A stretch of 64,000 nucleotides of DNA. It comes from Verrucomicrobiota bacterium. Lineage in GTDB: Bacteria > Verrucomicrobiota > Verrucomicrobiia > Limisphaerales > AAA164-E04. Shown here piece after piece: positions 34,558 to 60,440 of the stretch. A program made the position numbers and the translations under genes. Location: assembly GCA_047947115.1 (NCBI GenBank), contig CP170459.1, positions 4,480,001 through 4,544,000 of the forward strand. The letters are read 5' to 3'. Positions within the stretch are counted from its first letter, which is position 1. Each line of letters opens with the position of its first letter. Below the pieces are notes generated by a model. That model worked only from the letters and a program-made list of their open reading frames with translations. It had not been told where the DNA came from and searched no databases.

Positions 34558-36446
34558 ATGATCAGGATGGGTTCAATTCTACGACTGGCATGCTTGTCAG
34601 CTTGGTGCAGCACCTCAACGCTGCCACAAATCTTTTCACCTTCTGTCGTGATCAATGAGCTGCACTATGATGATGTCCCCAAGACATCACGCGGCGAATT
34701 TGTCGAGTTGTTCAACGCGGGCACGCTGACTGTGGATCTGTCCGAATGGCGTCTTGCTGGTGTCGGCAATTATTCGTTCCCAGCAGGCACGAATTTGGAA
34801 CCCGGTCAATTTTTGGTCGTGGCGGAAGATTCCCGGACCTTGAGAACCAAATACAGGATCCGCACTACGCATCAATACACTGGCGGATTGGACAATGATG
34901 GCGACAATCTCCGACTGTTTGATTCAGAAGGCAATCTGGTCGATCAAGTCGAGTATCAATCCGGCTATCCATGGCCGACAGCGGCTCGAGGCAAGGGTGT
35001 CTCTATGGAATTGCTGAACCCCTCACTCGACAACAATCTGGGAGGATCCTGGCGATCATCCGAAACACCGACTCCTGGCACCCAAAACACAGTTCTCACC
35101 CTGAATATTCCACCGCAAACCAGGCAGGTTAACCACCGACCACTGCAACCTTCGTCAGGAGAAGATGTCCATATCACAGTCAAAGTCACGGATCCAGACG
35201 GAGTCAAGCAAGTCACTTTAAGTTACCAATTGGTTGAACCCGGCCAATACATTCGCAAAAGCGACCGTTCCTATGAAAGCCAATGGACCGAAATCCCCAT
35301 GCATGACACCGGTGAGGATGGAGATGCAATGGCCGCCGACGCTGTTTATCATGTCAAACTACCTGCGTCACTGCATCGTCACCGCCTTTTGGTTCGTTAT
35401 CGCATTACCGCCGAGGATACACGGGGAAATTGGGTGACTATTCCTTATGCGGATGATGAGAGCCCCAATTTTGCCTATTTCGTGTATGACGGAGTACCTG
35501 CCTGGTCGGGTAGCTTGAGGCCGAGAGTTTCGCCAGGATTGGATTTTTCACAGGACATGATGGCTCAATCCATGCCTGTTTACCATCTCATCGCACGCCA
35601 GACCGACGTGGAAAACAGCCAATACAACCGCACGTATGACGGTCGTCGAATGTCAGGAACCCTGGTCTATGATGGAATCGTCTATGACCACATCCAGTTC
35701 TACAACCGAGGAGAAGCTTCGACCTATGTCAGCGGAAAAAACAAATGGCGATTCAAATTCAATTCCACACACGATTTTGCCAGTCGTGACAACTACGGAC
35801 AAAGATACCGAGCCAATTGGAAAACCCTCAATCTCAATGCCTGCGCATCACCCTGGGTGGCCTCCAACCGGGGCATGGCTGGATTGGACGAAGCAGTTCC
35901 ACACCGGCTCTACCAACTGGCAGGGGTAACCAGTTCAAACACGCACTGGATCCAGTTTCGCATCATCGACAATGAAGAAGAAGCACCCCCCGATCAATAC
36001 GAAGGAGACCTGTTGGGCCTATACCTGGCCATTGAACATCCGGACAGCCGTTTCCTGGAAGAGCGTCGTCTGCCGGATCGCAGCACCTACGAAATCGCCA
36101 GCAACCAAGGCAATAAGAAAAACCAGGGACCGGATCAACCTCTTGATCAATCAGACTGGGACACCTTTTGGAGCCTAAGCAATCGGCTCAACACCGTCGA
36201 ATGGTGGCAATCAAACTTTGATCTCCGCAGTTTCTACGGCTTTCGGGCCATCAATCGAGCCACCGGTAATGTCGATCTACGTGACGGAGCCAACTATTAC
36301 ATGTTTCAACACGCCAATGAACAATGGACTCCCCTACCCTGGGACCTGGACATGATGTATGCGCCGATCAAACACGTATGGAGTGGTGTTATCCGAGCCG
36401 ATCGTTGCCTGGATCACGAAGCCATCCGCATCGGTTTACAAAACCG
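34558..36446 (+). pseudogene. N-terminal part of a lamin-tail-domain/CotH-kinase protein, interrupted by the integrative element
   Basis: VVINELHY...EFVELFN (LTD), GKNKWRFKF and PLPWDLD (CotH). The track ORF runs on to 36576 into element DNA; the matching C-terminal part resumes at 58838. Confidence 0.88.
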
Positions 36447-36456
36447 GTGCTCTACC
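36432..36456 (-). repeat. Left att junction: core CGGTTTACAAAACCG plus D-loop/anticodon-arm fragment of tRNA-Thr(UGU)
   Basis: Reverse complement is GGTAGAGCACCGGTTTTGTAAACCG (anticodon TGT in a 7-nt loop). Confidence 0.9.
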
Positions 36457-36585
36457 CGATGCGAGATTTTACATAAGTCATTCAAAAAGATGCAAACAAC
36501 ACAAATACAGCATTTAAAGCTCTGGATACATGTCGCAAGGTTTGCGAACATGAACGAACGCAAACGCAATTATTGACACTTTTAA

Positions 36586-36604
36586 CGTCAATACAATGTC
36601 AATG
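36586..36604 (+). repeat. Putative integrase arm-type site (tandem GTCAAT), left copy
   Basis: CGTCAATACAATGTCAATG, 17/19 identical to 58741-58759. An inverted ATTGAC lies at 36572-36577. Confidence 0.65.
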
Positions 36605-36687
36605 GAATAAGGCCCTTTCAGCCGGCAACCATGGCTGGTTATAGGGTTGTTTGGGCTATTTCGCTATAGGGTGGGCCAAAAACCGTA

Positions 36688-37131
36688 TCAAGTCACATCA
36701 CACCCAGAGTTTTCGTGAGAGTTCAGAATCGCGGTCACAGAGTTGACCTGAATCAACTTGTTCTGCTGTCCATGTGCCCGAGCCAAGCCTCCAATGACCC
36801 GCTCTGCTCGCTTGGAGAGCATTTCCAGTGCGCGTTCCCGCTTCAGAATGCTATCAATGCGACGCGGTATCGGCATACGACGGATCCAGTGTAGCGTCTC
36901 CATGACATCCGTGGACATGATCCGCTCGTATTCGGTAGGTAGCTGGTTGTCGTCCAGGTCATCGCCACACTGTCGATCCAGTCCCTCAGGGCCATCCCAC
37001 ATGTAGCGGCGCTTCCACTCGCGGACGGTGCCGGGCTTGATGTCCAAAAGAGCGCCTATCTCGTGCGATGATTTTCCTGCTTCAACGAGCTCCTTGGCTT
37101 GTCGTCTTATGTCCAGGGGTAGAGAAGACAT
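36688..37131 (-). CDS. HTH protein resembling terminase small-subunit N-terminal domains
   Basis: RRQAKELVEAGKSSHEIGALLDIKPGTVREWKRRYMW pattern, followed by a helical region. Terminal position in the element. Confidence 0.55.
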   Translation of the reverse strand: MSSLPLDIRRQAKELVEAGKSSHEIGALLDIKPGTVREWKRRYMWDGPEGLDRQCGDDLDDNQLPTEYERIMSTDVMETLHWIRRMPIPRRIDSILKRERALEMLSKRAERVIGGLARAHGQQNKLIQVNSVTAILNSHENSGCDVT

Positions 37132-37272
37132 GCTGAAAGCATATCGAATATTGGATCGAAACTCAACACTGTATCGTTATAGTTTTGAACAATGGTCTAA
37201 GCTCCACTAGCACTGGGAGCAGAAACGGCTCCCCCACACCTTGCGTTCCAGCGTCCCAGAGCTATGCCAGTC

Positions 37273-39680
37273 CTGACCATCCCCACGCGGGTGGGGAGAA
37301 CTCTGTATGCGGGGTGAACTGGCAGGCCCATGTCGGACCATCCCCACGCGGGTGGGGAGAACTATTTGCGCAATTTCGCGCTCCCCCACTTTGCCGGACC
37401 ATCCCCACGCGGGTGGGGAGAACTTTCGAGTGACAAAAGCGCGAAAGCCTAAAGCCGGACCATCCCCACGCGGGTGGGGAGAACTACCAACCAAACCCAG
37501 CGTTTGATTGGCAGCCCGGACCATCCCCACGCGGGTGGGGAGAACAAAAAATCGTTTTCCAGCTTCGCCAATAGCGCCGGACCATCCCCACGCGGGTGGG
37601 GAGAACGAATCATGCCATCGGAAATATCCGCTTTTTTCCGGACCATCCCCACGCGGGTGGGGAGAACGCGCTTTGGACGTTGTCGAATTGGTATCTCCCC
37701 GGACCATCCCCACGCGGGTGGGGAGAACCGCTTAGGAAAGCCTCTTGTGCCTTGGGATCTCGGACCATCCCCACGCGGGTGGGGAGAACGCATTGGCTGG
37801 CGCAGTCTGGCGCTTGTGGCTCGGACCATCCCCACGCGGGTGGGGAGAACTCAAGACCAAAATCCAAAACAAGCTTGACCTCCGGACCATCCCCACGCGG
37901 GTGGGGAGAACGCGCTTTGGACGTTGTCGAATTGGTATCTCCCCGGACCATCCCCACGCGGGTGGGGAGAACACAAATAACATCCGTAATCATAGCGCAA
38001 TGGCCGGACCATCCCCACGCGGGTGGGGAGAACAAAGGCGCGGCTCACCACTGCGCTCCTCAATGCGGACCATCCCCACGCGGGTGGGGAGAACTCAAGG
38101 GCATCCTTGTCTGCTTCACCCATGTTCGGACCATCCCCACGCGGGTGGGGAGAACTCAAGGGCATCCTTGTCTGCTTCACCCATGTTCGGACCATCCCCA
38201 CGCGGGTGGGGAGAACTTTTTCCGGTGGTATCAACGCGCATACGGCGGCGGACCATCCCCACGCGGGTGGGGAGAACCAATCAGTTTGCTGCCAGCGATA
38301 GCTTTTGTGCGGACCATCCCCACGCGGGTGGGGAGAACCACGGCACCTGCACTGTATTTCAATGGAACGTCGGACCATCCCCACGCGGGTGGGGAGAACT
38401 GTATGGCAGCGTAAGAGGCTGCATTCCTGAGCGGACCATCCCCACGCGGGTGGGGAGAACAAGTCCGCAGTGCGAGTTGGTGACGACATCCTCGGACCAT
38501 CCCCACGCGGGTGGGGAGAACATTGGTCCGGTTGGTGACCTCCGGGATGATAACGGACCATCCCCACGCGGGTGGGGAGAACGCGTTCGCTCGTTTAGTT
38601 TCAACCAGTTGGCTCGGACCATCCCCACGCGGGTGGGGAGAACCTTTTAGAGATTCCGGCAGCGGTGACAAAACCTGGACCATCCCCACGCGGGTGGGGA
38701 GAACAACAAGCGCAACAAGCAACGCCATAAGATTTTCGGACCATCCCCACGCGGGTGGGGAGAACTTGTGGCAATCCTGATAAGATCCTCCGATTGTCGG
38801 ACCATCCCCACGCGGGTGGGGAGAACTGTTTGTCCGGAGCGTTGCAAGGTCACATCATCGGACCATCCCCACGCGGGTGGGGAGAACCTCGTTTGTCTCT
38901 GTCTCTCGATCGGTACATGCGGACCATCCCCACGCGGGTGGGGAGAACCAGCGGGGAACACGTCACCCAAAGCTGGGTCACGGACCATCCCCACGCGGGT
39001 GGGGAGAACGCGATGCAGGGAGTAACCAAGTGCGCGTTGAACGGACCATCCCCACGCGGGTGGGGAGAACCTCGATTTTTGACCGTAGACGTGCAGGCAT
39101 ACCGGACCATCCCCACGCGGGTGGGGAGAACGGAGCATGTGACCAGACCAAATTGCTGAATGACGGACCATCCCCACGCGGGTGGGGAGAACTGCACGCT
39201 GAAGCTGGGCGCCGCGAATAATAACGGACCATCCCCACGCGGGTGGGGAGAACTTCAGCCATTGCGCGAATTCGTCACGCTACGCCGGACCATCCCCACG
39301 CGGGTGGGGAGAACACAGGCGCCAGCCGTTTGCTTTCGTTTCGCCGCGGACCATCCCCACGCGGGTGGGGAGAACAACACTGCAAACCCGCATTGAAGAA
39401 GCAAGCGCGGACCATCCCCACGCGGGTGGGGAGAACTGTTCTGTCTTGCTGATTATGCGCCAGTTGTGCGGACCATCCCCACGCGGGTGGGGAGAACACA
39501 ACCGCATCATAAATCTGCGCAGTGGGTGGCGGACCATCCCCACGCGGGTGGGGAGAACCTCGTCGGCCCATTCGGCGCTTGGTTCGTAGTCGGACCATCC
39601 CCACGCGGGTGGGGAGAACACCCAGCTATCGCCAGGAAGAAAGCCAACGTGCGGACCATCCCCACGCGGGTGGGGAGAAC
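37273..39680 (-). CRISPR. Type I-E CRISPR array: 40 repeats of 29 bp (GTTCTCCCCACCCGCGTGGGGATGGTCCG), 39 spacers of 32 bp
   Basis: Strict 61-bp period. Degenerate trailer repeat at 37273; leader side adjacent to cas2. Confidence 0.99.
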
Positions 39681-39729: not shown

Positions 39730-40029
39730 TCAGAAGGGGCAATTTTCCCCGTCAACCCAGTCTTCAGCGACCAGTTGAAGGCCGCTCATCAGAGTATCGC
39801 GTCGATCTGGATTACCCCAGCGCTCGATTCGAAAACCCTGAGTATTGGGTTCGGAGGTGATGATAAGAAGGCTCATGCCGGAGGCGTTGCGTTTGACATA
39901 TTCGAGGACCTTATCTCGAGTGCGACGATTCACCGTGCCAACAAACACATTTGGTCTGGGTTCAATAAACCAGCGTTTGAGCATCCCCCGAATGGCGGGT
40001 AGAGTGTCGTTGGCAATGAGAACGGTCAT
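39730..40029 (-). CDS. cas2: Type I-E Cas2
   Basis: [19 protein letters not shown]...QGF pattern, located between cas1 and the array. Confidence 0.93.
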
Positions 40030-40038
40030 AAACAGAGA

Positions 40039-40926
40039 TCAAGAAATGGCGGACGGCGGACGAGTGTCGGCCTGTTGAGGAGCAGCCTCTTCCGTCTCAA
40101 ACAAACGTGCAAGATCCCTGGGGAGTTGTTGCAGGATGCGTTCCCTTTCGACATGTTGTTTGAGCAGTTTACGGACCAGCTCCCCATCGTCAGACGGGTC
40201 TTGTCGTGAGGCTAAAAAAGCGGCTGGAATACTCGTGCGATGTTTATATAGATCGGCAACGTCGTATATAAAAGGCAAGGTGCCAGCATCGTGAATGAAC
40301 CCAAGACTTGGCAGATAGCCAAGCGATGTCACTACTGCGGCGCATAGGGCGTAGAGGCTTGCATTTGCAGCAGAAAGAGCCCTATTGATGCCATCAGCAA
40401 GATGCCAGTTTCGGCGATCATAATTTCTACCTTTCCATGTGACACCATGTTGTCTACCAAATTCCGAGTAAAGAGCGCGAACACGGAGACCTTCCATGCC
40501 GCGTAATTCCTTGACGGTTTTTCCGGTTACATCAACATCGGGAAAACGCATTTGAAACATCGCCCGGGCAATCCGCGTGCGACGTCTTTTATCTGCCCAC
40601 GTCTCGGCGTGCAGCCGAGGCATGTCATTAGTGTGATTTGGAGCCAAACCAAAGGCGTAGAAACGCATCGACTCTCCCCCTGTCCAACACAATGGTGTGT
40701 TACTTTCCGCGCAAGCCTTAACGGCGGCATGAGTTACTGTCGTACCAGGTCCAAGTAACAATGCAGAAACAGTGGCAACAGGGATCCTACAGAGAGTACG
40801 GTCCGCACCGATCCATTTCACGCTAGAATCATCGACCTCCAAGCGTCCGTGCTCGAGATAAAGCGGCGTCCATCGATCCTTGGCTGGAGCGAGCGTTTCC
40901 AAAGGCGGACGTTCAAATAGAGGCAT
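40039..40926 (-). CDS. cas1: Type I-E Cas1
   Basis: LYLEHGRL, LGPGTTVTHAAV, LRGMEG.RVR, LGFIH and FIYDVADLYK motifs. Confidence 0.96.
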   Translation of the reverse strand: MPLFERPPLETLAPAKDRWTPLYLEHGRLEVDDSSVKWIGADRTLCRIPVATVSALLLGPGTTVTHAAVKACAESNTPLCWTGGESMRFYAFGLAPNHTNDMPRLHAETWADKRRRTRIARAMFQMRFPDVDVTGKTVKELRGMEGLRVRALYSEFGRQHGVTWKGRNYDRRNWHLADGINRALSAANASLYALCAAVVTSLGYLPSLGFIHDAGTLPFIYDVADLYKHRTSIPAAFLASRQDPSDDGELVRKLLKQHVERERILQQLPRDLARLFETEEAAPQQADTRPPSAIS

Positions 40927-40940
40927 CAGTCGGAAACGAT

Positions 40941-41651
40941 TTAAGGGTTTTTATTGATTGATTTGGATACGCGTCTGATCCAACGCGGTGTATGCCGTTC
41001 TCCAATGGGGCGACCGAAACCGATGGGATAATCCTCTATCATGTCTGCGCCATGATCGCCGGGTTCAGTTTCAACGACGTGATCAAAATCTCCCAACACA
41101 TGTTTGGTGGACAAACCAGCACGTTCCAACAAATCCTCCCAAACCTCTGAGCGCGGCCCCGGTCCGGCAGCAAGCACAGGACTGGCGGGCACACAAGATT
41201 TGCGCCCCAACCAAATGCCCCATTTGGGATCACTCAGGGCGTTTGCGATTTCAACCAACACAGCTACCGGGCCATCAAGCAACACACCGAAACGGGCGTC
41301 GAGCAAGTAGTGTCGATAAGTCAAGACGGTGGCATCAACCGCAACTTTGCCGCTGGCGCGGCGAATACCTGTAACCGTGTGGTAGTCCTCCAACCGTCGC
41401 ATGGGGAGAGATCGGTTTTGGCAGCTTGTTCGCATTAACGTCACCGTTGTTAATTGTAGTGAAGCAAAGCATTTCATGTGGTTCGCTTCCTCAGTGCCAT
41501 GTTTGTCGATCCCCATGGCTGCGGCGATAAGGCCAAGCACACCACTGCGAGTTGGGTGCAAAGCAGTTGTCCGACGGCCGAAACGCGAAGCATGTCCCCA
41601 CGATTGCATGGGACCGTCCAGTAACAACGCTAGACAGACATCAGATGACAT
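40941..41651 (-). CDS. cas5: Type I-E Cas5 (CasD)
   Basis: L.GPMQSWG...R.T...PTRSGVLGLIAAAMG, DYHTV, R.YL.DA.F and LGRKSC.P motifs. Confidence 0.95.
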   Translation of the reverse strand: MSSDVCLALLLDGPMQSWGHASRFGRRTTALHPTRSGVLGLIAAAMGIDKHGTEEANHMKCFASLQLTTVTLMRTSCQNRSLPMRRLEDYHTVTGIRRASGKVAVDATVLTYRHYLLDARFGVLLDGPVAVLVEIANALSDPKWGIWLGRKSCVPASPVLAAGPGPRSEVWEDLLERAGLSTKHVLGDFDHVVETEPGDHGADMIEDYPIGFGRPIGERHTPRWIRRVSKSINKNP

Positions 41652-42720
41652 TCTGTGTAAGGGCCTCACAAAAGGCGTTAAGGTTGATATCTGGTAGAAT
41701 GACCTCAGCATCACAGGTAATGTCCCAGGTCTCTTTAAGTTTGGTGTGATGAGCTTTCAGTGCCTCCACCGAAGCTTCCAGCAGGCCGCTCTTAGCACGG
41801 ACCGGCGATTCGAAGGCATTGACTAATTGTAAGGGTTGACCAGTAGACTTGTAAATTCCTAGCACAAAACCGGGTCGCGTGTTGGCATTCATGGAATTTT
41901 TCCGCGCGCCGGGGACAGCTTCCAGAGTGGCACGAATGAAACCATCCACTACCTTGCGTCGCTCTTCAACTGACAACTTTGCCAAATGTGCTTCGTCAGC
42001 AAGGAGGCCGAGGTTCACTGCAGCATATCGATAATAAACAGCGGAGGAGAACTCCAGTGTACCGATCATCCCCGCACCAGCATCATCTTCCTTGGGCTTT
42101 GCATCGTCCAAGGCGGAATAGAAGTCGAGATCGCTGTCCGCCAAGTGGGTGGAAAGAGCGTGGCTGTACATGGCCGCTCCTTCCAGTGTGAGCGAGGGTA
42201 AACTGGCAACCATGCGTCCAAAAAGAGCGATGTCGGCGCCATCGACAAGCCCCGCTTTTTTGCATAGTTTGTCGAGATTCTTCTCATAGTCCTTGGCTTT
42301 TGGGTTGGACCTTACTAACTCGGCAACCTGTTGCGCGACGGAATCGATCTCTGAAGGCGCGAGAAAGATCAACGTACCTACCTGAGGAATTCGTCCGTCC
42401 TTGACGGACTTGGTGTCGATTTTGGCCAATTTGTCAGCAATATTGACAGCATGTTCGGCAGCTACTTTATCATCAGTAATACCGTGCTTCTGTAAGGCAT
42501 CCATCAGCGGCTGTACAATGAGCTTGGTGCGACTACCGTTGAATTTTGCATCCGGAAGATTGGCCTGAGCGTATTCGCGAATCGCTCGCTTTAACGACTG
42601 ACTGGAAATCCGAGCGCGGTTGACACCACCGAACACGGCGGCTTTAGGAGATCCCACGTCATCTCGATTAAGGCAAGAAACGGGGAAAGACTGGAGGATG
42701 TGCAATTCAATGAGTTTCAT
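41641..42720 (-). CDS. cas7: Type I-E Cas7 (CasC/Cse4)
   Basis: HILQSFPVSCLNRDDVGSPK, RARISSQSLKRA, DIALFGRM and AGMIG..EF.SAVYYRY motifs. Confidence 0.96.
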   Translation of the reverse strand: MKLIELHILQSFPVSCLNRDDVGSPKAAVFGGVNRARISSQSLKRAIREYAQANLPDAKFNGSRTKLIVQPLMDALQKHGITDDKVAAEHAVNIADKLAKIDTKSVKDGRIPQVGTLIFLAPSEIDSVAQQVAELVRSNPKAKDYEKNLDKLCKKAGLVDGADIALFGRMVASLPSLTLEGAAMYSHALSTHLADSDLDFYSALDDAKPKEDDAGAGMIGTLEFSSAVYYRYAAVNLGLLADEAHLAKLSVEERRKVVDGFIRATLEAVPGARKNSMNANTRPGFVLGIYKSTGQPLQLVNAFESPVRAKSGLLEASVEALKAHHTKLKETWDITCDAEVILPDINLNAFCEALTQNVI

Positions 42721-42753
42721 ATTCTGTTTTGTATCGATTAAATATTATCTTGA

Positions 42754-43422
42754 TCAAAGGTTGAGAGGAGCCAGAACAAGCAGTCCAAATCCAAACGCCT
42801 TGGCCGAACCGATACCGGTTGCAACTGCTTCGCGGAACTGTAACGAATCCGTAACAGTCAATTCTCCTTGAAATTCGACGGCATTGTGCGTGCCATGCGT
42901 GTGGGCGTCCTTGTGAAAGAACTCGCGACCACGCGGGATGGTGCGAAGTGAATCCCTGTTTAGGGCGAATCCGGCTACTTCAGCTTTGCGGTGAAGCCAC
43001 GCGATAAGGTCTCCACGCTTGGTAATGGCAAGACGACGACCATTTTTTGTACGTTCACCCGCTTTGTTCGATCGAACCTTGCGCGTGGGATTGGCCAATA
43101 AGCTGAAACGGTAGGAAGAATGCTCGAAAAAGGCGTCCGGAATGGGTTTCGTCCCAAAGCTATCAGTCGGGCACCAGTCAGGCTTACGCGGAATGTTCCG
43201 CGAAAGGATCAAAACCTGAAAGCACAAATCCTTCCGGTCCACCCGCGTGAGGAAATCACGGGGCTGTCTGTCTGTTCCACCAAATGCAAGCCAGATCTTC
43301 TGGTGCCAATCGTAGGTATCCCGGATGCGAAGCAAACGGATAGCATCCTCATAAGAGACTAGGATCTGAGTTAGATGCAGCGCCTCGACAGCAACAGTCG
43401 AAGGAGTTGTAGCGGTAATCAT
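42754..43422 (-). CDS. cas6: Type I-E Cas6e (CasE/Cse3)
   Basis: Y.WHQ.IW, F.L.ANPT and C-terminal GIGSAKAFGFGLL glycine loop. Confidence 0.95.
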   Translation of the reverse strand: MITATTPSTVAVEALHLTQILVSYEDAIRLLRIRDTYDWHQKIWLAFGGTDRQPRDFLTRVDRKDLCFQVLILSRNIPRKPDWCPTDSFGTKPIPDAFFEHSSYRFSLLANPTRKVRSNKAGERTKNGRRLAITKRGDLIAWLHRKAEVAGFALNRDSLRTIPRGREFFHKDAHTHGTHNAVEFQGELTVTDSLQFREAVATGIGSAKAFGFGLLVLAPLNL

Positions 43423-43973
43423 ATGTTAGCTAGTTGGATGGGATTTTCTGGGGTAGCGGCGTCTGCGGTATCGATTCCGGAACGCCAGAAGGAACGAGCC
43501 CATTGCACGCGAATATCGTCTGCATACCAGCGCCAGTTCCAAAGGTCGGCGAAGAGCGATTCGTAATTCACGCCTATACCTTTACCTGAGGCAAGACGTA
43601 TCCATGAACGCAATTGCTCCACGAGGTCGGAGGGCTCACCAGAAACGATAAGTCGTCGGAAGCGCCGCTCGTAGCTCTCGGGTAGTGCATTATCGGGCGA
43701 GTGAGCGATCGCAATCGCGCGGCACGTATCACCAAAGTTGCGCACATTGGATCCTTCAGGATGTGTTGCAAACAGCGCAGCAATATCAACGTGCACGGAT
43801 TCACCAGGCTGTCCAATACTTCCGCCGAGGCCGACGACCACAGGCCAGGCATTGACGACGGTGGAGCGGCTGAGACCGCGACGCAATGCCGCCATCTTAC
43901 CGCGGTTGTTTTGAATGCGGCGAAGTCTTGCAACGAAGTCAGCAGCACGCTCACTAGGCTTGATTTTGCTCAT
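43419..43973 (-). CDS. cse2: Type I-E Cse2 (CasB/Cas11)
   Basis: RG.MAALRRGL, ERRFRRL and VNY..L..DL..W...IRVQWA..FW motifs. Confidence 0.92.
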   Translation of the reverse strand: MSKIKPSERAADFVARLRRIQNNRGKMAALRRGLSRSTVVNAWPVVVGLGGSIGQPGESVHVDIAALFATHPEGSNVRNFGDTCRAIAIAHSPDNALPESYERRFRRLIVSGEPSDLVEQLRSWIRLASGKGIGVNYESLFADLWNWRWYADDIRVQWARSFWRSGIDTADAATPENPIQLANI

Positions 43974-45450
43974 ACAAATTTCCTTTCTTGTTTTTGGCGA
44001 TTTTGGGTTTTGGGACAGCATTCAGGCGTCTCAGTCCAAGGGCATAGGCCTGAATCTGGCGAGGCGTCTGGCGTGGACAGGATTGTTGATAGGCCTCAAG
44101 TGCGGCGGAGCGGACTGCTTTCCCCCAACCCGATTCAGGGAGTTCCTCGTCAATAGTGAATTCACGAGCAACATCAAACAGTTCAGGAAGACTTTGCTCG
44201 GTGATGGTCCAGAAGTGTTGACGAGCTTTGTTATAAGCCGGAGAAAGCACTTCGAGTTGCGAGGCGTAGACTTTCACTGCTTGAATCAGGATAGATTCTG
44301 CGATCTCGGCGTATTTAACGCCTCGTTCGTAAGCAAGGCGCCCGGGCGTGTCGAGCATTGAACGCGGTATGCGATATTGAGCTTCCACGACATCTTCGAT
44401 CTTAGCCTTGTCCGTAACCAATGCCCCCACCCAAAGGCCCACTTCCGAGAAAGTTACTTCGTGGGATAGCGCCAAAGGGCCTGATATCGAATCGCCGGAA
44501 GACCGTCGACGAATTGTTACGGGAGCCAATTGGCGCCAGAGACTTCGGTCTGTCGAGGCAGGCATCAATCCGTAATCATCCTTCTTTTGGATAATCGTGG
44601 CAGTTGCTTCGCGATAGGTAGGAAAGATCGGATAATCCAGTCCGTTGGCTAGAAGCATCTTGTTTCCGTCCTCGGCCAAACAGACGAAGCGAGTGAGAGG
44701 GACCAAGCGCCCCAGATATGAGGAAGAGGCGTTTTCTAAGGCTGATTGATCAGCGGCGTCAATAGGGGGACAATCCCATATAGGCTTTCCAAATCTCGAA
44801 TAAACATCTCCAACTATCGCCTTGGTCAACAAATTCAAATGGATGGTATCTAATAGGGAATCGCCAAGCAACAACGCATGGAGCATGCTGGAAGATACAC
44901 ATGGAGCGTGGTTACTAGATCCTTTTCCGAGAGTATCTTTACCATGCCACTTCGCAACGCCAATACGCCCCCCGGGAGAAAAACACTGAAATGTCAGTAG
45001 ATTGAGAGCAGCGCGAGAAGCGGAGACCGATCTGTTATCCCCGGCAGAATTGTCGAAAAGAGTCGAGTTGTTACCTGTAGCGAGTGAGAGATCAAGCTTG
45101 GTGGATGAGTTCCCCTCATCTGTATCCTTGCTAGGCTTGAGATTTGAAACCTGCAGAAACCTTTCACTGTCACCGAACAAGTCGAATTTAGTTTTCCTAT
45201 TCTCCAAATACTCCTTCACTAGAGGTTGGATACTTTGCAAGCAATCCTCCCAATCCTCTTCATCCTGAGGACCATCTAATGCGGCCTGTGATATACAAAT
45301 TAACAGACGCATGAGAGCAATGCGTTCGTGTGGTTTCACGGCAAGGTCCCGGAGCTCGTGGGCTTGCGCGAACATCTCTTGCAAGCTGTAAAGCATGCTC
45401 TTGCCGTTATGGCAAACGGCTGGGATCCACGGATCACTGGTCAAATTCAT
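43954..45450 (-). CDS. cas8e: Type I-E Cas8e (CasA/Cse1)
   Basis: MNL..DPWIP, FDLF....FLQ, GNN.TLFD, LL.FQCFS.GG and RSLWR motifs. Confidence 0.93.
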   Translation of the reverse strand: MNLTSDPWIPAVCHNGKSMLYSLQEMFAQAHELRDLAVKPHERIALMRLLICISQAALDGPQDEEDWEDCLQSIQPLVKEYLENRKTKFDLFGDSERFLQVSNLKPSKDTDEGNSSTKLDLSLATGNNSTLFDNSAGDNRSVSASRAALNLLTFQCFSPGGRIGVAKWHGKDTLGKGSSNHAPCVSSSMLHALLLGDSLLDTIHLNLLTKAIVGDVYSRFGKPIWDCPPIDAADQSALENASSSYLGRLVPLTRFVCLAEDGNKMLLANGLDYPIFPTYREATATIIQKKDDYGLMPASTDRSLWRQLAPVTIRRRSSGDSISGPLALSHEVTFSEVGLWVGALVTDKAKIEDVVEAQYRIPRSMLDTPGRLAYERGVKYAEIAESILIQAVKVYASQLEVLSPAYNKARQHFWTITEQSLPELFDVAREFTIDEELPESGWGKAVRSAALEAYQQSCPRQTPRQIQAYALGLRRLNAVPKPKIAKNKKGNLYEQNQA

Positions 45451-50405: not shown

Positions 50406-52555
50406 GCCTTGGTTGGGTAAGGGTTTTCGGTCTCAAACTGAAGATTATCTCTAACAGCCGCACGAACAAGCGGGTGGCGATCCCGGGAAAGCCCATCACG
50501 CAGGTAGGGGTGTAGGCTCGGCTCCAAAGCGGTAACCGCCCTGACAAACCAGTGTTTGTCCCGGGTCAGGATCCGGTGTCGGATTCGGTCCTTGCGGTCC
50601 CAAAGGGCTAGGCAGGATCTATACCAGGGGTTGCGGCTGTAGAGCAGATCATCGGCTCCCTTGTTTGCCTGCTCCAGAAAATGGTCGCGTGCCGGGCATT
50701 CTGCTGACTGTAGGAAGCCGCTGATGGTGGCCTTCTGGATCAGAGGCTCGGGGTCCTTCATCAATCGGTTTAAGGCCTGGGGGCTAGTCCAAGGATCATT
50801 AGCAAGCAACCACCGCAAGGCGGGGTGTTCATCTTTCAACAATGCAGACTCGAACTTTTTGAAAAACGTAGGATACCGTTTGAGTTCGCTGGCCCGCTCC
50901 CAAAGCACCAATTTGGCAGCTTGCTCACGAATGGCAACCTCCTTAACCGCAAAAAGCGGCAACGAGTCTTGAAAACATTGCCAGGTCCGTTTGCTGAGGA
51001 CCTCCAGTGCGACCTCAGGCACTGGGTCCTTGACCAGCTGGCTGAGGTCCTCCCCGCTGATCCTCCAGTCCCGACAGATCTTCTTACGAATCTCAGGATC
51101 AGGATCACGGGTTAATTCGGAAAGGGTGTGGGCATAATGCTCTCCGCGATAGCGTGTGTGACTATGTGCCAGATAGTAATCGGCCACGGCATGACGGACC
51201 GAGCTGTCAGGGTCTTTGACAAGCTGAGGCCTCAGTGAGGAAGCCGGTCGCCCTGGCAGCCTGGCAGCAGCGGCCCTGAGCCTGGGGTCTTCGTGTCGGG
51301 CTGCCTTACCAACCAGGAAGGAATGGGCTGATGGATGAACCAGTGGGATCAGCTCATCAGCGGTTTTGGTCTTGATCAGCTCTTTGGCAACCTCCCTGCT
51401 AGGCTTTGGATTATCGAAAAGCGCCTGACGGATGGTGCCACCAAGGCCCCATAAGCGCTTCTCGGTTGTCCTGGAAAGGCCTTCCTTTCGCGCCAAAGCC
51501 TCGAACCAAGAGGACCGGAACCCTTTACCTATCAATTCCTCCACAGTCTCCTCAACAGCCTGATCGTCGATAGGCCATTCTAGTTTTATCTGCTCCCAAG
51601 CGGCTTGGCTGACGGACGGCTGGGAGTGGCGCGTCATCCGCCATAAAAAACGTGAATCAGTTCGCCAGTTTTGGGCCACGATTAAGGCGACTTGTGGCGC
51701 CTCTTCAAATGCCTGGTCGATCATTCGATACAAAAGGTCACGGGAACGTCCTTCCAGGCCACTGCGTCGCCAATCACGACACAGGGCAAAACTCACAAAA
51801 AACTCGGGCTTTTCGTGCTCAAGGGCATATTCAAACATGTCATCCTGTGCATAATCCTGAGCTAAATTGAGCGCTCGAATGCATAAATGTGGGTTGTGTT
51901 GAAGTTTGCGAGCAATTGCCAATACATCACCAACGACCTCGTTGGGTTTCTTGATGAAACGTTCTGCATACGGATGATCGGAGTCAGGATTTTGCCAAAG
52001 CGAACCGAGAGTGATCCGATGGTTACTGAGGTTTTTTATTACCCCCTTACCGACATCGAAGGAGGAATCCTTCAGGAATGGGACCAGGTGCGATGCTGGA
52101 AGCTTCTCTGCCGCTTTTTTGCGTACATTTTTGGACGGGTCACTAGCCAGTGCCGCCACATAATCTTCAACCAAGGCCGGCTTTCTGCTCAATAATCTGC
52201 CTAGTAAGCTCCATTTACCCATGCTTTGCCACTCAAGAAAATCCTCACAATCTTCGAGCCGCTGCGCTTCGGTGATGTAACTTTCAAGCACTTTCGTATC
52301 TTTTCTGTGGATCAGGTAAGTGTACAAACTCAGACGACAAACGTCCGGTAAAAGTCCATGTAAGGATTTTCCCTCGTTCAAAGACTTCAATGCCAAGATA
52401 GGATTATCCAACATGGCCTGGGGTTGGTCTATCCAAAGATTGATCAGCTCTTCCCATGGAGTTGATGGATTCAGAGCACGTCCCCCGGCTGCTTCGCAGG
52501 TATACGAGGACGTTTTTGGTTCTGACGCTCGGTTGTTTTGACCAACATCATTCAT
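50402..52555 (-). CDS. HEAT/LRV-like repeat protein
   Basis: Many L..DP...VR..A repeats (LASDPSKNVR, LVKDPDSSVR, LTRDPDPEIR, LSRDRHPLVR) and an N-terminal NPSTP...L motif. Confidence 0.75.
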   Translation of the reverse strand: MNDVGQNNRASEPKTSSYTCEAAGGRALNPSTPWEELINLWIDQPQAMLDNPILALKSLNEGKSLHGLLPDVCRLSLYTYLIHRKDTKVLESYITEAQRLEDCEDFLEWQSMGKWSLLGRLLSRKPALVEDYVAALASDPSKNVRKKAAEKLPASHLVPFLKDSSFDVGKGVIKNLSNHRITLGSLWQNPDSDHPYAERFIKKPNEVVGDVLAIARKLQHNPHLCIRALNLAQDYAQDDMFEYALEHEKPEFFVSFALCRDWRRSGLEGRSRDLLYRMIDQAFEEAPQVALIVAQNWRTDSRFLWRMTRHSQPSVSQAAWEQIKLEWPIDDQAVEETVEELIGKGFRSSWFEALARKEGLSRTTEKRLWGLGGTIRQALFDNPKPSREVAKELIKTKTADELIPLVHPSAHSFLVGKAARHEDPRLRAAAARLPGRPASSLRPQLVKDPDSSVRHAVADYYLAHSHTRYRGEHYAHTLSELTRDPDPEIRKKICRDWRISGEDLSQLVKDPVPEVALEVLSKRTWQCFQDSLPLFAVKEVAIREQAAKLVLWERASELKRYPTFFKKFESALLKDEHPALRWLLANDPWTSPQALNRLMKDPEPLIQKATISGFLQSAECPARDHFLEQANKGADDLLYSRNPWYRSCLALWDRKDRIRHRILTRDKHWFVRAVTALEPSLHPYLRDGLSRDRHPLVRAAVRDNLQFETENPYPTKA

Positions 52556-52598: not shown

Positions 52599-52606
52599 GG
52601 CTTGTA

Positions 52607-53190: not shown

Positions 53191-53232
53191 GGCTCAATGT
53201 TTTTTCTGGTTTCATTGGCCACCAGGATCTGG

Positions 53233-53272: not shown

Positions 53273-53278
53273 AAAATC

Positions 53279-53400
53279 CGGAGGAGACTTACTTTCCACT
53301 CAATTGAGTGGCTCATCCGATACTTTTCAGTATCGAAGGCACCTTGGCTCTCCCAGCCAGGTTGCCAGGTCTTGCAACTTGCAGGACCGTTCCTGATGAC
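53279..53400 (-). ncRNA. SAM-I/IV-type riboswitch aptamer
   Basis: Minus strand: P1 TCATC/GATGA; P2 GGTC...GACC; core GGCAACC...GGTGCC; P3b TGGCT-GGGAG-AGCCA; P4 CGATAC/GTATCG; P5 CCACTC/GAGTGG; 3' tail CTCCT complementary to the L3 loop (PK-2). Confidence 0.85.
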
Positions 53401-53406
53401 GACTTC

Positions 53407-53435
53407 AACCTACATCATGCAGATGTGTTCGACAA
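53407..53435 (-). promoter_or_regulatory. Sigma70-like promoter for the riboswitch transcript
   Basis: -35 TTGTCG, 17-bp spacer, -10 TAGGTT; the predicted start falls at the first base of P1. Confidence 0.6.
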
Positions 53436-53456
53436 TACTGTTTTGTGTCATAAAAC

Positions 53457-53738: not shown

Positions 53739-53842
53739 TTTCAATGAATCTAACCAACGGGGCGTTCCAGTCAACTCCGCTCAGAGTTGATCGGATGGCT
53801 GTCGCTGGGTGTATTCCGGCGTCTACTTTTTACCTGTGCGTT

Positions 53843-53970
53843 TTACTGCAACTGGTTTCCTGCACTGCAGAACAGTAATAAACCTGCCAGTTACTGCAAC
53901 TGCAAACCCTAAAGGGTTTTTGCAGTATGCAGTTAACCTGGCTTTAGCTTTTTCACTGCAACGCTGCAGT
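53843..53970. repeat. Putative replication origin: clustered (A)CTGCA iterons converging on an AACCC-TAAA-GGGTT palindrome
   Basis: About nine CTGCA/TGCAG units in 130 bp at the 3' end of the helicase gene. Confidence 0.65.
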
Positions 53971-55005
53971 AGTCCAGATACGAGTCTTAGGTTCCTTGGT
54001 CACTGAACCATCATGCTCAAGCTGCTTGAGCAAATTGTGAAAAGTACGTTCGCTCATTCCTGTCTCTTCTCTGGCAAGCTTGAGCCAGTCCTTTGTTTTG
54101 CAACCTGAAACCGGCAACAACTCAAGCAATTGCTCTGATGAATACTTCTTGCTTGCTCCTGCCTTGGTCTTCAGATCAGAAGGATCGAAGTCAACTCTTG
54201 TACAAACAGGATGACTCCAGCTTATCACGAAGCTTTCAACACTCGGATGATTACGCAGGACCAAGTCCACAGTGAAACAATCCTCTTCCTTGTGCTTGGT
54301 CATTGTCACCAGTGCATCCGGATCTCGAGCAAATACACCACTGCCTGAGAATCGATCCATTTGTTCCTTGCCGGCTTGGTTGCCCTTGGAAAAATGGTGA
54401 GCACTGATGACGGCGGCACCGGTCTGGTTGGCTATGTCATCAATTATGTTCAAAAACTCCGCTATTTCCCCGGCGGCGTTTTCATTCCTACCGGCCATGA
54501 TCTTGTAAAGCGGATCAAGGATAATGGCCCCATACTTCATCGGAGCTGCCCGGCTGCATATGGCTTCTCTGATGGTCGTAATATCGGGATTGTGACCGCG
54601 CAAGCCCCAGTAGTCGATGTTCTCCATTCCACCATCGGGATATTTTGCGACAACACCTTTGATCGATTGATCAATATTGTCCATGCGCTCCATGAAAAAC
54701 GAAGTGAGCAGTTCCATATTGACATACAAAACGCGGCACTTGTTAGTTTTAAAATCCAACCAGCTTCCGCCTGAAGCCAGTGCATGTGCAAGTTGCATCA
54801 GGATCCAAGTCTTGTTGGATTTGGATCCACCGCCAATGATCATTTTGCAACCGGCGTGTAACACCCCATCAATCAATTCCGCGGGCTTCTCGCGATCCTG
54901 CGGATTCAATTGACTGAGGGGTGTTATTTCCGGCAGATCATTGCCTTGCGCCAAGGCAAGATCCAGTGGATCCAGAATTAATTGTTCGGCATCCATCGTT
55001 CGCAT
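53953..55005 (-). CDS. RepA-like replicative helicase (AAA_25/SF4-like) with C-terminal HTH-like region
   Basis: GGSKSNKT Walker A, VLYVNME, IILDPL, HHFSKG and RFSGSG.F.RDPD motifs. Confidence 0.85.
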   Translation of the reverse strand: MRTMDAEQLILDPLDLALAQGNDLPEITPLSQLNPQDREKPAELIDGVLHAGCKMIIGGGSKSNKTWILMQLAHALASGGSWLDFKTNKCRVLYVNMELLTSFFMERMDNIDQSIKGVVAKYPDGGMENIDYWGLRGHNPDITTIREAICSRAAPMKYGAIILDPLYKIMAGRNENAAGEIAEFLNIIDDIANQTGAAVISAHHFSKGNQAGKEQMDRFSGSGVFARDPDALVTMTKHKEEDCFTVDLVLRNHPSVESFVISWSHPVCTRVDFDPSDLKTKAGASKKYSSEQLLELLPVSGCKTKDWLKLAREETGMSERTFHNLLKQLEHDGSVTKEPKTRIWTTAALQ

Positions 55006-55997
55006 AGGTCTCCATGTTGGCTCCAGTAATCATAAAGGTCGTTCACCCCTTTAAATGGCGACAATTCGTATACCTCCACTGAAGAGCACCCTGCATCAAG
55101 TAACTGTTTTTTCCAGCGGGATGCCGCTCGCCTTCCAGCTTCGTCATCATGTCCGAAGATCCTAATCACTTTGCCCTTGAAAAAAGGAAGCACGGCCTCA
55201 TGTATGAGTGAAGAGCTGCCAAGCATGCCCACGGGTGCACAATTAGGTTCTGGCTGTTCGGTCTGGATGATGTGATGTGCAATCAGGAAATCCGGAATTC
55301 CCTCAACCAAGGCTATGTTCCTGAACTTTGATGCCTCCACAATACCAACGGGCCAGCTTTTCCGACTACCGGGCTCGGCCTTGCTTTTAATTCCTGCTGG
55401 AAATGGCTTGTTGTCCAGCCGCCGTGCCTCAATGACGTTCCCTGTTTTGTCGCATACGTAGTAGCATTCGTTCTTGCACTTAAGAACGCCGCGCTCCGAA
55501 GCCCAGAGCAGTCCCTGCAGACCGTAAGGCCTCTCATGAGCCATTTGCTGCAGAATCTGCCTAGAGGGCTTCAGAAGGCCGCGACCTTGCTCGTATGCCT
55601 CTGCATCCAGAAACATTTTGGGATCCAAGTTAACCGGTTGATCCTTGGTCCTGCGCAAAGGGCGGATCCGCTTTGGTGGGGCAACCTTAGCCAGGGTTCT
55701 GTATATGTCCAACACCTTGGCAAAATCTTTGTGCCGATCGAAACCGTGAACAGTGGCAATGAATTGAAGTTCATCTCCAACAAGTCCTGTTCCGTGGTCT
55801 TTGAACAACCAATTGGTCTCAACTTGATAAATCCCAAAACTTGGATTCTTATCGTCCCTGAAGGGTGAAGAACATGATTTTTTGGCATAATCGCCGAAAT
55901 CCATTGCTTCCATCAGATCTGGGAGTGGAAGCGCTTGTTTGAGTTGTTTAATTTGACTCTGCACCTTGGCAGGAGTTTGAACTTTTAATTGTTTCAT
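54978..55997 (-). CDS. Primase-like protein (degenerate CHC2-type N-terminus plus TOPRIM domain)
   Basis: SPFRDDKNPSF...FKDHGTG..GD, LVEG.PD, GHDDEAG and VNDLYD motifs. ATG at 55997 is ATGA-coupled to the upstream gene. Confidence 0.8.
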   Translation of the reverse strand: MKQLKVQTPAKVQSQIKQLKQALPLPDLMEAMDFGDYAKKSCSSPFRDDKNPSFGIYQVETNWLFKDHGTGLVGDELQFIATVHGFDRHKDFAKVLDIYRTLAKVAPPKRIRPLRRTKDQPVNLDPKMFLDAEAYEQGRGLLKPSRQILQQMAHERPYGLQGLLWASERGVLKCKNECYYVCDKTGNVIEARRLDNKPFPAGIKSKAEPGSRKSWPVGIVEASKFRNIALVEGIPDFLIAHHIIQTEQPEPNCAPVGMLGSSSLIHEAVLPFFKGKVIRIFGHDDEAGRRAASRWKKQLLDAGCSSVEVYELSPFKGVNDLYDYWSQHGDLCERWMPNN

Positions 55998-56404
55998 AAA
56001 TTTGAGTTGGGAGAGTACACACCCTCCCCAATTGATAAGTTTTCTGTTAATGGTTTGATTTCCACTACCTTGGCCATGGTTTGACCTTCGGCCTCGAAAT
56101 GCGCTACTTTCAGTTGGCATTTCTTTCCCTTGAGCTTCATTAGATCGAACTCGTTGTGAAGTTCCTCTGGACCTACCCATGCAGATAGATCCTTTAGCAG
56201 ATTGCTTTTGGGATGCAGGGTTGCGTTATAGGATTTCCTGATCTGAAGCGTCTCTGATGAGTCTTCAGGGACGATCAACCATGTGAAACGGACGAGGTGC
56301 TTGTTGCCATATTCAGTAGGCACAAAGCCTCTGTCCACGATCTCGGAGCAAATTGCCCGATGCCATCCCTCTTGGGGCAGTTGTCTAAGTAATTTTAACT
56401 TCAT
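55994..56404 (-). CDS. Phage-type SSB/replication-associated protein
   Basis: G.H.A.C..IVD.G...T.YG, Y..TLH.KSNL.KDL..W.G and FDL..L.GK.CQL.V.H pattern. Sits in the replication operon. Confidence 0.6.
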   Translation of the reverse strand: MKLKLLRQLPQEGWHRAICSEIVDRGFVPTEYGNKHLVRFTWLIVPEDSSETLQIRKSYNATLHPKSNLLKDLSAWVGPEELHNEFDLMKLKGKKCQLKVAHFEAEGQTMAKVVEIKPLTENLSIGEGVYSPNSNL

Positions 56405-56506
56405 GATTTTATGGGTGTTCGTGTGCCTAAATGCACAGGAAATTGGTTTGTGACGGAAAATCTCAAGGCACAGATATCCATCCAGACACCCCGAAAAGGG
56501 GGTGCC

Positions 56507-56824
56507 CTACTTGCTAATCTGTTGTGTTGGATTTTTTGTTGGGGGGTGGGGGGTGTTCCTCCTGACGGCTTTGATTTCGAGCAAATTCAAGGCTTGCTTG
56601 ACACTATCTGGGTCGAAGCGAACGCACCTTTTGCCGAGGCGGGTCACCGGAATCTTTTTGGCATCTACCAACTTTTCGAGTTGGCGAATTGAGATTTGAA
56701 GCTGGGCGGCTAGCTGCCGCTTGTTGAGATAGGAATTACCATACCAGGTTGAATTGACAAAGTCGCTGCAATTTGCGCTATTGTTTCCCAATTGTGTGTC
56801 TCGTGCAGGAGTGTTCGTATCCAT
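56507..56824 (-). CDS. Excisionase/AlpA-like HTH DNA-binding protein
   Basis: YLNKRQLAAQLQISIRQLEKLVDAKKIPVTRLGKRCVRFD. Confidence 0.8.
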   Translation of the reverse strand: MDTNTPARDTQLGNNSANCSDFVNSTWYGNSYLNKRQLAAQLQISIRQLEKLVDAKKIPVTRLGKRCVRFDPDSVKQALNLLEIKAVRRNTPHPPTKNPTQQISK

Positions 56825-56855
56825 GTGGACAACCTGTCCGACGTTTGAGGAAATG

Positions 56856-57518
56856 TCATCTGGACAATTTTGGATCCAAGTTTGTCCAACTCGCATCTAG
56901 TATAAATTGAAAACCTTTACGGCGAAACCCTCTTATTATTGGCCCTCTAGTTACGTGGTTGTATCGAATTAGCCCCAGTCTCTGAACTGCTTTCCGGTAG
57001 TTTTGCTCATCACACGTATGTCCGCTTATTTTTGAAAGGTGATAGGCTCCATCATCGTCTGTCATCATCCATAAAAACCCATTCACCCAAAACTGTAGAA
57101 TTCCAAACTCGATTTTGAACGTTTTTTTACTAATGCGTCTGGTGTATCTTCGGTGAGCAGTATGGATTTTTTGAAAAAACTCAGAATCCCCATTGAGTGC
57201 CTTCTCTAGGATATGATAAGCGAAGAACTTCAATGCAGCGTCAAGCTGGCCGAGTGAAATTAAACCAAAAAACGCTTCATCTTTTTTCGTGTCACTCTTT
57301 GTTATATCCTTTTGGCTCTTTGAGAGCCCAAAAGCTTTCCGTTGATATGCATGGACCTTTTCTTTCCAATTTTTGTGAACTTTGTCAAAGCCTTCGATTT
57401 TCGTTGTTTTCCTAAAAAAATCTTCTAGCCCGTTATCCAACTGCCATTTTTTACCTAGCTGTTGTCCAACACCTGCCAGTAACTCATCCCACTCGTCTAG
57501 TTGGTATGATTTTTCCAT
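56856..57518 (-). CDS. Hypothetical protein coupled to the integrase (possible regulator)
   Basis: TAATG stop/start overlap with the integrase at 57516-57520. No recognisable motif. Confidence 0.65.
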   Translation of the reverse strand: MEKSYQLDEWDELLAGVGQQLGKKWQLDNGLEDFFRKTTKIEGFDKVHKNWKEKVHAYQRKAFGLSKSQKDITKSDTKKDEAFFGLISLGQLDAALKFFAYHILEKALNGDSEFFQKIHTAHRRYTRRISKKTFKIEFGILQFWVNGFLWMMTDDDGAYHLSKISGHTCDEQNYRKAVQRLGLIRYNHVTRGPIIRGFRRKGFQFILDASWTNLDPKLSR

Positions 57519-58711: not shown

Positions 58712-58740
58712 GCGTTTAAGTTCGCATATGAGCGTTTTTG

Positions 58741-58759
58741 CGTCAATAAAAAGTCAATG
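58741..58759 (+). repeat. Putative integrase arm-type site (tandem GTCAAT), right copy
   Basis: CGTCAATAAAAAGTCAATG, 17/19 identical to 36586-36604. Confidence 0.65.
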
Positions 58760-58803
58760 TTTCGGCACTAAGCTTGAGCATTGTGTGTAAGTCGTTGAAG
58801 GAG

Positions 58804-58852
58804 TGGAGCCAGCTGTCGGGGTCGAACCGACGACCGACGGTTTTCAAAACCG
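58804..58852 (-). pseudogene. Right att junction: 3' half of a tRNA-Thr (variable loop, T-arm, acceptor strand, CCA) ending in core CGGTTTTCAAAACCG
   Basis: Reverse complement ...AAACCGTCGGTCGTCGGTTCGACCCCGACAGCTGGCTCCA, with T-arm GTCGG-TTCGACC-CCGAC. No 5' acceptor strand is present. Confidence 0.9.
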
Positions 58853-60440
58853 ATGCCGCGAATTGCTCGATCTTTTGTTTTCTGACATCAAGCGTCATGG
58901 AGGCCAGGCCGCACAATTGGTTCAAGAACTTTCACAGATTGTGAACCCGGACCAATGGCCACTGACCATGGTTGATGTGGATGAAACCATGTGGAGTTCC
59001 CATCCGAAAACAAGTGGTTCCCACCGTGGCCCCTGGTATCGACTGTCCGTCAATGAAACCAGACTTGCCAGCAGCTACCGCAGAAATATTCCGACCCCCG
59101 ATCATGAAGGATTTCAGCAACGTATCATCGAGTATATGTTCAACACGCGGCCAGACGGAAGTTTTCGAGTCAACGATGCGATCGAGGATGGTTATGGTTA
59201 CGGATATCTATCTCAAGAAGCTTCGGCATCGGGCATTCCGAACCGTCCCGACATATCCTATGCAGGAGAACCCGGCTTTCCGGTTGACGGTTTGGCTTTT
59301 AACAGCAGCACCTTCGTCAACCCGAGAGATCCTAGCGGATTTGCCCGGATGGAATGGAGAATAGGAGAAGTGTCCAATCCGGAAACCGAAAACTACGTCC
59401 CCGGCACACCCTGGATTTATGAGATCGAACCTCTCTGGCACAGCGATCCCATGACAACTTTTTCAGAGACTATGGCCATCCCGCCGGACCAGCTCAAACC
59501 GGGACACACTTACCGCGCGAGAGTGCGACACGTCAACACAGAGGGGCATGCCAGTCATTGGTCACTACCATTGGAATTTGTCGCCTCGGCACCGGATTTG
59601 ACCTTGTTTCGGAACGGATTGGTCATCAGTGAAATCATGTATCACCCAGCTGGGGATTCCACGGCCGAATACATTGAACTTCACAATATCGGCGAAGCCA
59701 CTCTCTCCCTGAGTGGCTTCCGTTTCACGAAGGGAATCGATTTCGATTTCCCCGATGACACTGAAATAGAGCCAGGAGGATACCTGTTGATCACAGGCGA
59801 CCGGCAAGCCTTTGAAAGAGTGTATGGGCCAAACCTACCCATAGTCGGGGAATGGGAACAAGGGGACCGGTTGAGCAACGCCGGAGAAAACATCAAGCTC
59901 TCCTACGGGGCAGGCATCCCCATCATCGACTTCACGTATGAAACAGAAGCCCCCTGGCCAACCGCTCCCGACGGAAAGGGTTCATCTCTGCAACTTGCCA
60001 ACCTCCGTTCTGGCTTGGATCACACCAATCCCGCGCAATGGAAAGCAAGCATTCAACCAGGAGGCACGCCGGGCAAAAGCAATGGTAACTCTCTTGAAGA
60101 TTGGCTGACGTCTTATGGGATTATCGAATCCAATCTCGAAGAAGATCCGGACAATGACGGTCTGCCTTCGTTACTGGAATATAGTCTGGGAAGCAACCCA
60201 AACGTTGCCGATGTTTCATCCATCATGACCATCACATACACCGAGGCAAATGTCACGCTAGCCACCCGAGTTGATCTCGGAGCCACCGATGTGGAGGTGT
60301 CTGCACAATTTTCCACCAACCTGAAAGCCTGGGAAACAATCAATAGCCCGGCCATCAATCCCACCAGTCCGACCGAACTGAAATGGACCGCCCCAACCCA
60401 CCCGAAGGGATTCTTCCGCCTTCAAGCCACTCGACGTTAA
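58838..60440 (+). pseudogene. C-terminal part of the interrupted CotH/lamin-tail protein
   Basis: GFQNRCRELLDLLF continues the N-terminal half in frame. Then FN3-like YRARVRH...SHWS, second LTD (LVISEIMYHP), DPDNDGL..LLEY.LGSNP and terminal FFRL. Confidence 0.88.

Follow-up and report, generated by a model that had tools for sequence, protein, structure and literature searches.

The window analysed here is the whole 64,000-nucleotide stretch of contig CP170459.1 (assembly GCA_047947115.1, positions 4,480,001 to 4,544,000, forward strand) of a Verrucomicrobiota bacterium. It contains a genomic island of 22,406 bp, which encodes a tyrosine integrase and splits the gene for a protein with LTD, CotH and LTD domains (LTD-CotH-LTD). 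We consider it very probable that this island integrated off target, recently and at the level of a single strain, at a sequence that mimics a tRNA anticodon arm by chance. The observed part of this reading consists of the island ends, the tRNA-type attachment site (attP), the targets of the integrase clade, the empty and intact alleles in other strains and the rank of the site as the best non-tRNA mimic. The gene halves, the attachment sites and the integrase are arranged as follows.

34558..36431, plus strand: 5' part of the LTD-CotH-LTD gene; its open reading frame (ORF) continues into the element and stops at 36576
36432..36446, minus strand: integrase-distal core, attR by the convention for tRNA islands (P-O-B'), with the tRNA-type 7-bp loop
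36447..36456, minus strand: P-arm stretch copying the D-arm side of the tRNA, shared with the on-target attR of the relative L046
57518..58711, minus strand: tyrosine integrase of 397 amino acids, open frame (PF00589, phrog_1)
58804..58837, minus strand: P' arm, carrying the tRNA-Thr(UGU) 3' half up to and including CCA, which would serve as the replacement in an on-target insertion
58838..58852, minus strand: integrase-proximal core, attL (B-O-P'), with the host-gene-type 7-bp loop
58853..60440, plus strand: 3' part of the host gene, stop-free, with the end of the CotH domain, an fn3-like region and the second LTD

The cores at 36432-36446 and 58838-58852 share 14 of 15 bases, and the match extends no further on either side. 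The single mismatch is base 5 of the 7-nt loop, i.e., the third anticodon base, and its place in the anticodon loop agrees with the original prediction. When the inner ends of the island were joined on the minus strand, 58 of 59 bases were identical to the host tRNA-Thr(UGU) from the D-loop to CCA (E 8e-25), as had been claimed for attP; the host tRNA gene lies at 3759130-3759204 of the genome (G000), and the region matched by attP is 3759130-3759188. Joining the outer ends gave one stop-free ORF of 1,170 amino acids from TTG 34522 or 1,158 amino acids from ATG 34558, which corresponds to the predicted continuous protein of about 1160 residues. As was also foreseen, both halves are free of stops and the frame is kept with either core, the residue being Leu or Phe depending on the core used. 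The mismatch in the overlap is divided between the two ends, the host-type loop lying at 58838-58852 and the tRNA-type loop at 36432-36446; intact alleles carry Phe.

Pfam models matched LTD and CotH in the 5' half of the host gene and LTD in the 3' half. In P0161, an intact protein of the same species, the CotH match (residues 393-659) spans the break point; the insertion therefore falls within the CotH domain. Split in this way, the gene is likely inactive, and the cell likely tolerates the loss of its product, as about 27 CotH genes (30 matches, many in very long ORFs) are present in the genome. The antisense strand of the tRNA half (58803-58852, plus strand) is open and in register with the 3' gene half, which produces a 545-amino-acid ORF from GTG 58803; expression of this ORF is doubtful because Shine-Dalgarno-like bases directly abut its start codon.

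The integrase gene begins 92 bp inward of the CCA end of the tRNA fragment, and its product has motifs at the R, K, HxxR (NxxR here), H and Y positions. In an integrase tree of 20 rows, the island integrase fell in a clade of seven rows (support 100/99). The other six rows stand directly behind tRNA genes, five behind tRNA-Thr(UGU) and one behind tRNA-Arg(CCU), and none lies in a protein gene. The Thr(UGU) rows are L032 and L033 (90% identity to the island integrase; the two proteins are identical), L034 (79%), L031 (77%) and L018 (67%), and the Arg(CCU) row is L035 (78%); L017, L031 and L064 are apparently one locus and were counted once. L038, outside the tree, likewise follows a Thr(UGU) end, and among nine metagenome loci, L036, L037, L039 and L040 have no upstream end and are uninformative on the target. 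The on-target attR of L046 has the same P arm (72% identity over 700 bp, the D-arm copy included), followed by the displaced 3' half of the tRNA at the position that the CotH gene occupies in the island copy. In its layout, the island is an ordinary tRNA island flanked by the wrong host DNA. The P-arm motif, when searched for in genomes, was found at 119 loci of other phyla, which have no bearing on the target question.

The host tRNA-Thr(UGU) gene itself is whole, and comparison with the tRNA fragment of the element showed that the primary site is unoccupied by any integrase island. An occupied primary site was considered as the reason for the off-target event and was rejected, as the tRNA gene is intact with no integrase beside it. 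Behind this gene lies a unit of about 330 bp without an integrase (G000:C1:3758801-3759130, L047), which comprises an 83-amino-acid GIY-YIG ORF (PF01541), a short hairpin and 43 bp copied from the tRNA 3' end; one contig end from public run X7 resembles the start of this unit. At L035 (687-762), the integrase is nearly identical to the Thr(UGU) integrases of L031 and L034, and the anticodon arm of tRNA-Arg(CCU) shares the half-sites; this locus looks like a very recent target switch. Orphan 3' halves of tRNA-Thr(UGU) with non-tRNA left flanks were also seen at L066 (genome G007) and L067 (genome G001), one of them with a one-base loop change, and these are likely the ends of other islands. In the host genome, tRNA pieces are duplicated or scattered in the regions of tRNA-Tyr, tRNA-Met(CAT) and tRNA-Ala(GGC/CGC).

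Without the island, the CotH site reads as a perfect 11-1-11 palindrome, of which there are 10 genome-wide, and its mimicry of the anticodon arm reaches beyond the 15-bp core. Each 8-bp half-site agrees with its tRNA or attP counterpart at 7 of 8 bases, and the loop agrees at 6 of 7. Under a half-site model based on three natural half-sites, the site scored 20/23 and was the only non-tRNA-derived site among 11 rows scoring at least 19, two of which are its own strands. That is, it is the best non-tRNA match to the target in the 6-Mb genome under the half-site model; the model was made after the site was known, and the rank is supportive rather than a blind test. By plain identity to the tRNA, the CotH site scored 18/23 and was tied with six others, its loop match being the best. 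The differing half-site base is A in the tRNA and C in the island attP, and the CotH site and the tRNA-Arg of L035 both have T; this pattern suggests a position that the integrase would tolerate.

The protein motif encoded at the site is conserved in 120 homologs (Phe/Tyr in 116, Asn in 116, Arg in 114; Leu in 3). The mimic arises from this conserved motif together with the codon choice of the species itself. The orthologs in genomes G001, G007 and G021 use other codons and have no palindrome; therefore, the site is not conserved as DNA. A scan for the host-side flank gave 0 matches, and a scan for the empty-site palindrome gave 1 match, in an unrelated genus.

A class of integrations at tRNAs with crossover in the anticodon loop was reportedly described by Williams in 2002. 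In the mechanism that we propose, the integrase would have paired attP with the palindrome through two half-sites, each having 7 of 8 bases in common with that of the tRNA/attP, and strand exchange would have proceeded across the 7-bp overlap holding one mismatch. Replication would then have resolved the heteroduplex, such that the host loop stayed at attL and the tRNA loop at attR. The inserted strain would thereby have gained a CRISPR-Cas (clustered regularly interspaced short palindromic repeats and associated proteins) system with the island. Excision is likely to be possible at a reduced level and is predicted to yield Phe or Leu alleles.

This course of events resembles that of ICEBs1, an integrative and conjugative element (ICE) in Bacillus subtilis. 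Even with attB intact, secondary sites receive ICEBs1 at 1e-4 to 1e-3 of the attB level, and mismatched 7-bp overlaps lead to differing attL and attR (PMC3715440). Its excision was 4-15% of normal from four of the seven tabulated secondary sites and <1e-4 from the other three, with less circle when a heteroduplex forms (PMC3715440). The two elements share a tRNA-targeting tyrosine integrase, an attB of stem, 7-bp loop and stem, insertion at near matches in protein genes while attB is intact, and an overlap mismatch that leaves attL and attR unlike. Unlike the secondary-site work on ICEBs1, the present case comes from a natural genome rather than laboratory selection, and the CotH site is a perfect 11-1-11 palindrome. 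The island itself is not an ICE because no conjugation genes were found. Islands that target tRNAs have one complete and one partial tRNA copy at their ends (PMC9897764), and relatives L031-L034, L018 and L046 show this textbook on-target form. The island has the integrase directly behind the tRNA 3' half and a replacement half through CCA in attP, as such islands do; unlike them, the present copy is off-target, the complete tRNA is not rebuilt and a host gene is split. Natural off-target copies recognised by integrase phylogeny and alignment of attachment sites are also known for helper-embedded phage-inducible chromosomal islands (HE-PICIs), whose primary targets are prophage late genes, in contrast to the tRNA targeted here (PMC10111431). 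A literature search found no paper on this island and none on Verrucomicrobia LTD-CotH proteins among the matches listed.

The empty site was found in other samples. Among public runs containing the host gene, mostly estuary, marsh and seawater metagenomes, 24 were listed and seven were compared. Contigs bridging the 5' and 3' gene halves without the island, i.e., the empty attB, were present in six of the seven. Contigs from X1, X2 and X3 (DNA) and X15 (an RNA library), which differ at 3-6 bases, depart at 36450 into the 3' half, and contigs from X2, X4 and X7 join at 58838 coming from the 5' half; in one X2 contig of 21,369 nt, both junctions map to the same base. For X14, there was no joint among those listed. 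Among the matches listed, no contig covered 36512-36607 in X1, X2, X3 or X15, and no piece bridged element and gene. These samples also contain relatives of the element; identity reaches 100% for cas pieces (in X2) and is about 94-98% for integrases.

The protein data agree with these contigs. Clustering at 90% places the protein in a group of 17, of which 15 were listed; two are the halves from this genome, and 11 of the 13 others reach the site. Phe was found in 10 of these 11 same-species alleles, nine of them unchanged, and neither Leu nor read-through into the element occurred in any of the 11. P0152 keeps Phe and is two residues short immediately ahead of the core. In P0158, a frameshift and about 20 foreign residues are present at the site, and the foreign peptide was absent from the genome and loci searched. 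P0157, of the same cluster, has a C-terminal end that we take to be a library-adapter peptide. P0161 is likely from the same data as X2, and therefore the strain counts are not fully independent. Close orthologs are intact in G001, G007 and G021 (three among 21 other genomes of the family), and element read-through was found in none of 120 homolog representatives. Thus, relatives hold the intact gene (three orthologs) and the insertion did not recur among the 11 alleles.

The joined ORF is 97.6-99.7% identical to intact proteins of the same species, and no residue in either half is unique against all seven full-length ones. Similarity to the three orthologs is alike for the 5' and 3' halves (76/72%, 70/66% and 64/51%). 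The absence of decay in the gene halves is what a recent event would predict.

Between its ends, the island carries the following features, and its main genes are all on the minus strand, reading from the integrase end.

36676..37256, minus strand: helix-turn-helix (HTH) gene module with an ORF at 36688-37131 and a weak IS630 N-terminal match
37274..39680, no strand assigned: type I-E CRISPR array with 40 repeats and 39 spacers of 33 nt, 37 of them distinct
39730..48067, minus strand: cas3-cas8e-cse2-cas6-cas7-cas5-cas1-cas2 (ORF and Pfam scan)
48289..52555, minus strand: module of a HEAT-repeat protein, a MoxR-like AAA ATPase and a DUF2201 VWA/metallopeptidase protein (profile matches)
53280..53404, minus strand: SAM-I/IV riboswitch (S-adenosylmethionine; Rfam RF01725, 48 bits against a gathering score of 41.1)
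53953..56404, minus strand: replication module of an AAA_25 helicase-like protein, a DnaG-like primase and an NGO0469-family initiator (profile matches)
56507..56896, minus strand: HTH_17 or excisionase-like gene (match below curated cut-offs)

ORFs of at least 90 amino acids were scanned with Pfam (21 ORFs), NCBIfam (11) and PHROGs (11), and three ORFs remained without a name; an ORF of no assigned family lies between the integrase and the HTH_17 gene. Capsid, tail and conjugation genes were absent among the main ORFs scanned, in which only weak HTH matches to terminase models appeared. The island has the backbone of integrase, HTH and replication/primase genes resembling that of PICIs, with no packaging gene or helper identified. 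Judged by gene content, it would be neither an ICE nor a prophage, and a satellite-like or mobilisable life is possible. The genome has several further tRNA and tmRNA islands with related integrases. The 3.3-kb stretch 53218-56551, which holds the replication module, is 97% identical to part of the tRNA-Glu island of the same genome. Four copies of the HTH module (82-90% identity) lie near the ends of other tRNA islands in the genome (Glu, Ser-GCU and Ser-CGA, the last twice), and the module is also found at the attR of L046.

The CRISPR array is the only array in the genome bearing its repeat, and the island cas1 and cas3 are the sole ones detected in the genome with the queries used. A repeat finder recovered 41 copies of a 22-nt part of the repeat. 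Two spacers are duplicated within the array (37881-37972 and 38064-38216), spacer 7 equalling spacer 11 and the other case being a tandem pair. The spacers gave no full match to their own genome (best 16-17 nt), and none to loci L001-L040 or 50,697 phage records. A type I-E system with the same variant cas order is carried on the integrase island GI-24 of Vibrio cholerae, in which low-rate excision was shown; the host phylum and the site differ (PMC6360697). PADLOC named no defence system in the HEAT/AAA/VWA module and returned weak ATPase matches only. The riboswitch sits upstream of this module, in a stretch that is 87% conserved in L035.

Every test run supported the insertion of a tRNA-Thr element at a secondary site as a recent event. 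The following points weigh against it. The primary tRNA-Thr site is free, so that the assembly shows the rarer outcome; therefore, a bottleneck or selection is needed to account for what was seen. Contigs lose rare variants, and a minority of inserted cells would escape notice. In addition, the lesions in P0152 and P0158 could signal recurrent events.

These points lead to the alternative that the CotH site is a recurrent hot spot under selection, at which loss of a surface protein and gain of CRISPR-Cas are favoured together, e.g., under phage pressure. In its favour, no other non-tRNA mimic ranks above the CotH site, the element family is in circulation in the same samples (cas pieces of up to 100% identity in X2), lesions at the site occur in two of 11 alleles and the free primary site was left unused. 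However, no second insertion was seen and 10 alleles showed no Leu footprint; the lesions may be assembly errors at the hairpin, and nothing marks the CotH protein as a phage receptor. We regard a selected hot spot as quite improbable. A related proposal, that the palindrome is a recurrent second landing site of a circulating CRISPR island family and that the P0152 and P0158 lesions are scars of earlier visits, is a long shot that we rate a shade higher. If it were true, one integration would remove a surface protein and install the only CRISPR-Cas system, and excision would reverse both.

The original prediction also raised the idea of a reversible switch, in which a signal would trigger excision of the island and so restore a surface kinase-like CotH protein. 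Such excision-restored genes exist, as in skin/sigK. The stop-free and undecayed gene halves, the open-framed integrase, the excisionase-like gene, the frame kept with either core and the free tRNA site would all suit a switch. However, undecayed halves are equally expected of a recent insertion, and in-frame restoration is no evidence for a switch because any precise excision restores the frame. The site held no insertion in the six bridged runs, the 11 same-species alleles or the three close orthologs. The integrase clade is tRNA-specific and not dedicated to CotH, and attP bears a tRNA half, not a CotH half. In addition, the mismatch is expected to lower excision and to yield some Leu at a position where 116 of 120 homologs have Phe or Tyr. 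Known switches, e.g., that of Listeria comK, are immobilised elements repurposed at one gene (PMC8987985). The present gene is likewise split by an element whose precise excision would rebuild it; unlike comK, the island does not recur at the site, has no gene-specific integrase clade and is not immobilised, as it keeps its replication genes and cargo and has relatives at other sites, unlike the remnants described (PMC8987985). The switch is therefore not supported by the recurrence, integrase and attP data, and we consider it very unlikely.

A further alternative is an assembly chimera, in which a tRNA island of a different strain was wrongly placed in the gene by way of the 15-bp repeat. It would fit the fact that every population contig seen is empty at the site and that the insertion is known from the assembled genome alone, yet it is almost certainly wrong. 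The two junctions are precise and reciprocal, and attL and attR divide the single mismatch between them as expected of recombination. The assembly consists of a single contig of 6.08 Mb with 0.68% contamination, in which the tRNA locus is present and intact in its own place, and a 14/15 repeat is too short for the usual assembly join.

The off-target integration at the CotH gene, an event of a known kind, is no evidence for a new regulatory switch. It represents an unusually complete natural record of such an event: the primary and the empty secondary site, attP, the attL and attR that relatives show on target and a sister integrase that moved to tRNA-Arg(CCU) are all available. Together they point to one half-site position at which the integrase likely tolerates A, C or T, and which may bear on how tRNA integrases change targets. 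Finally, the type I-E CRISPR-Cas system is shown to travel on an island family in estuarine Verrucomicrobiota-like bacteria.

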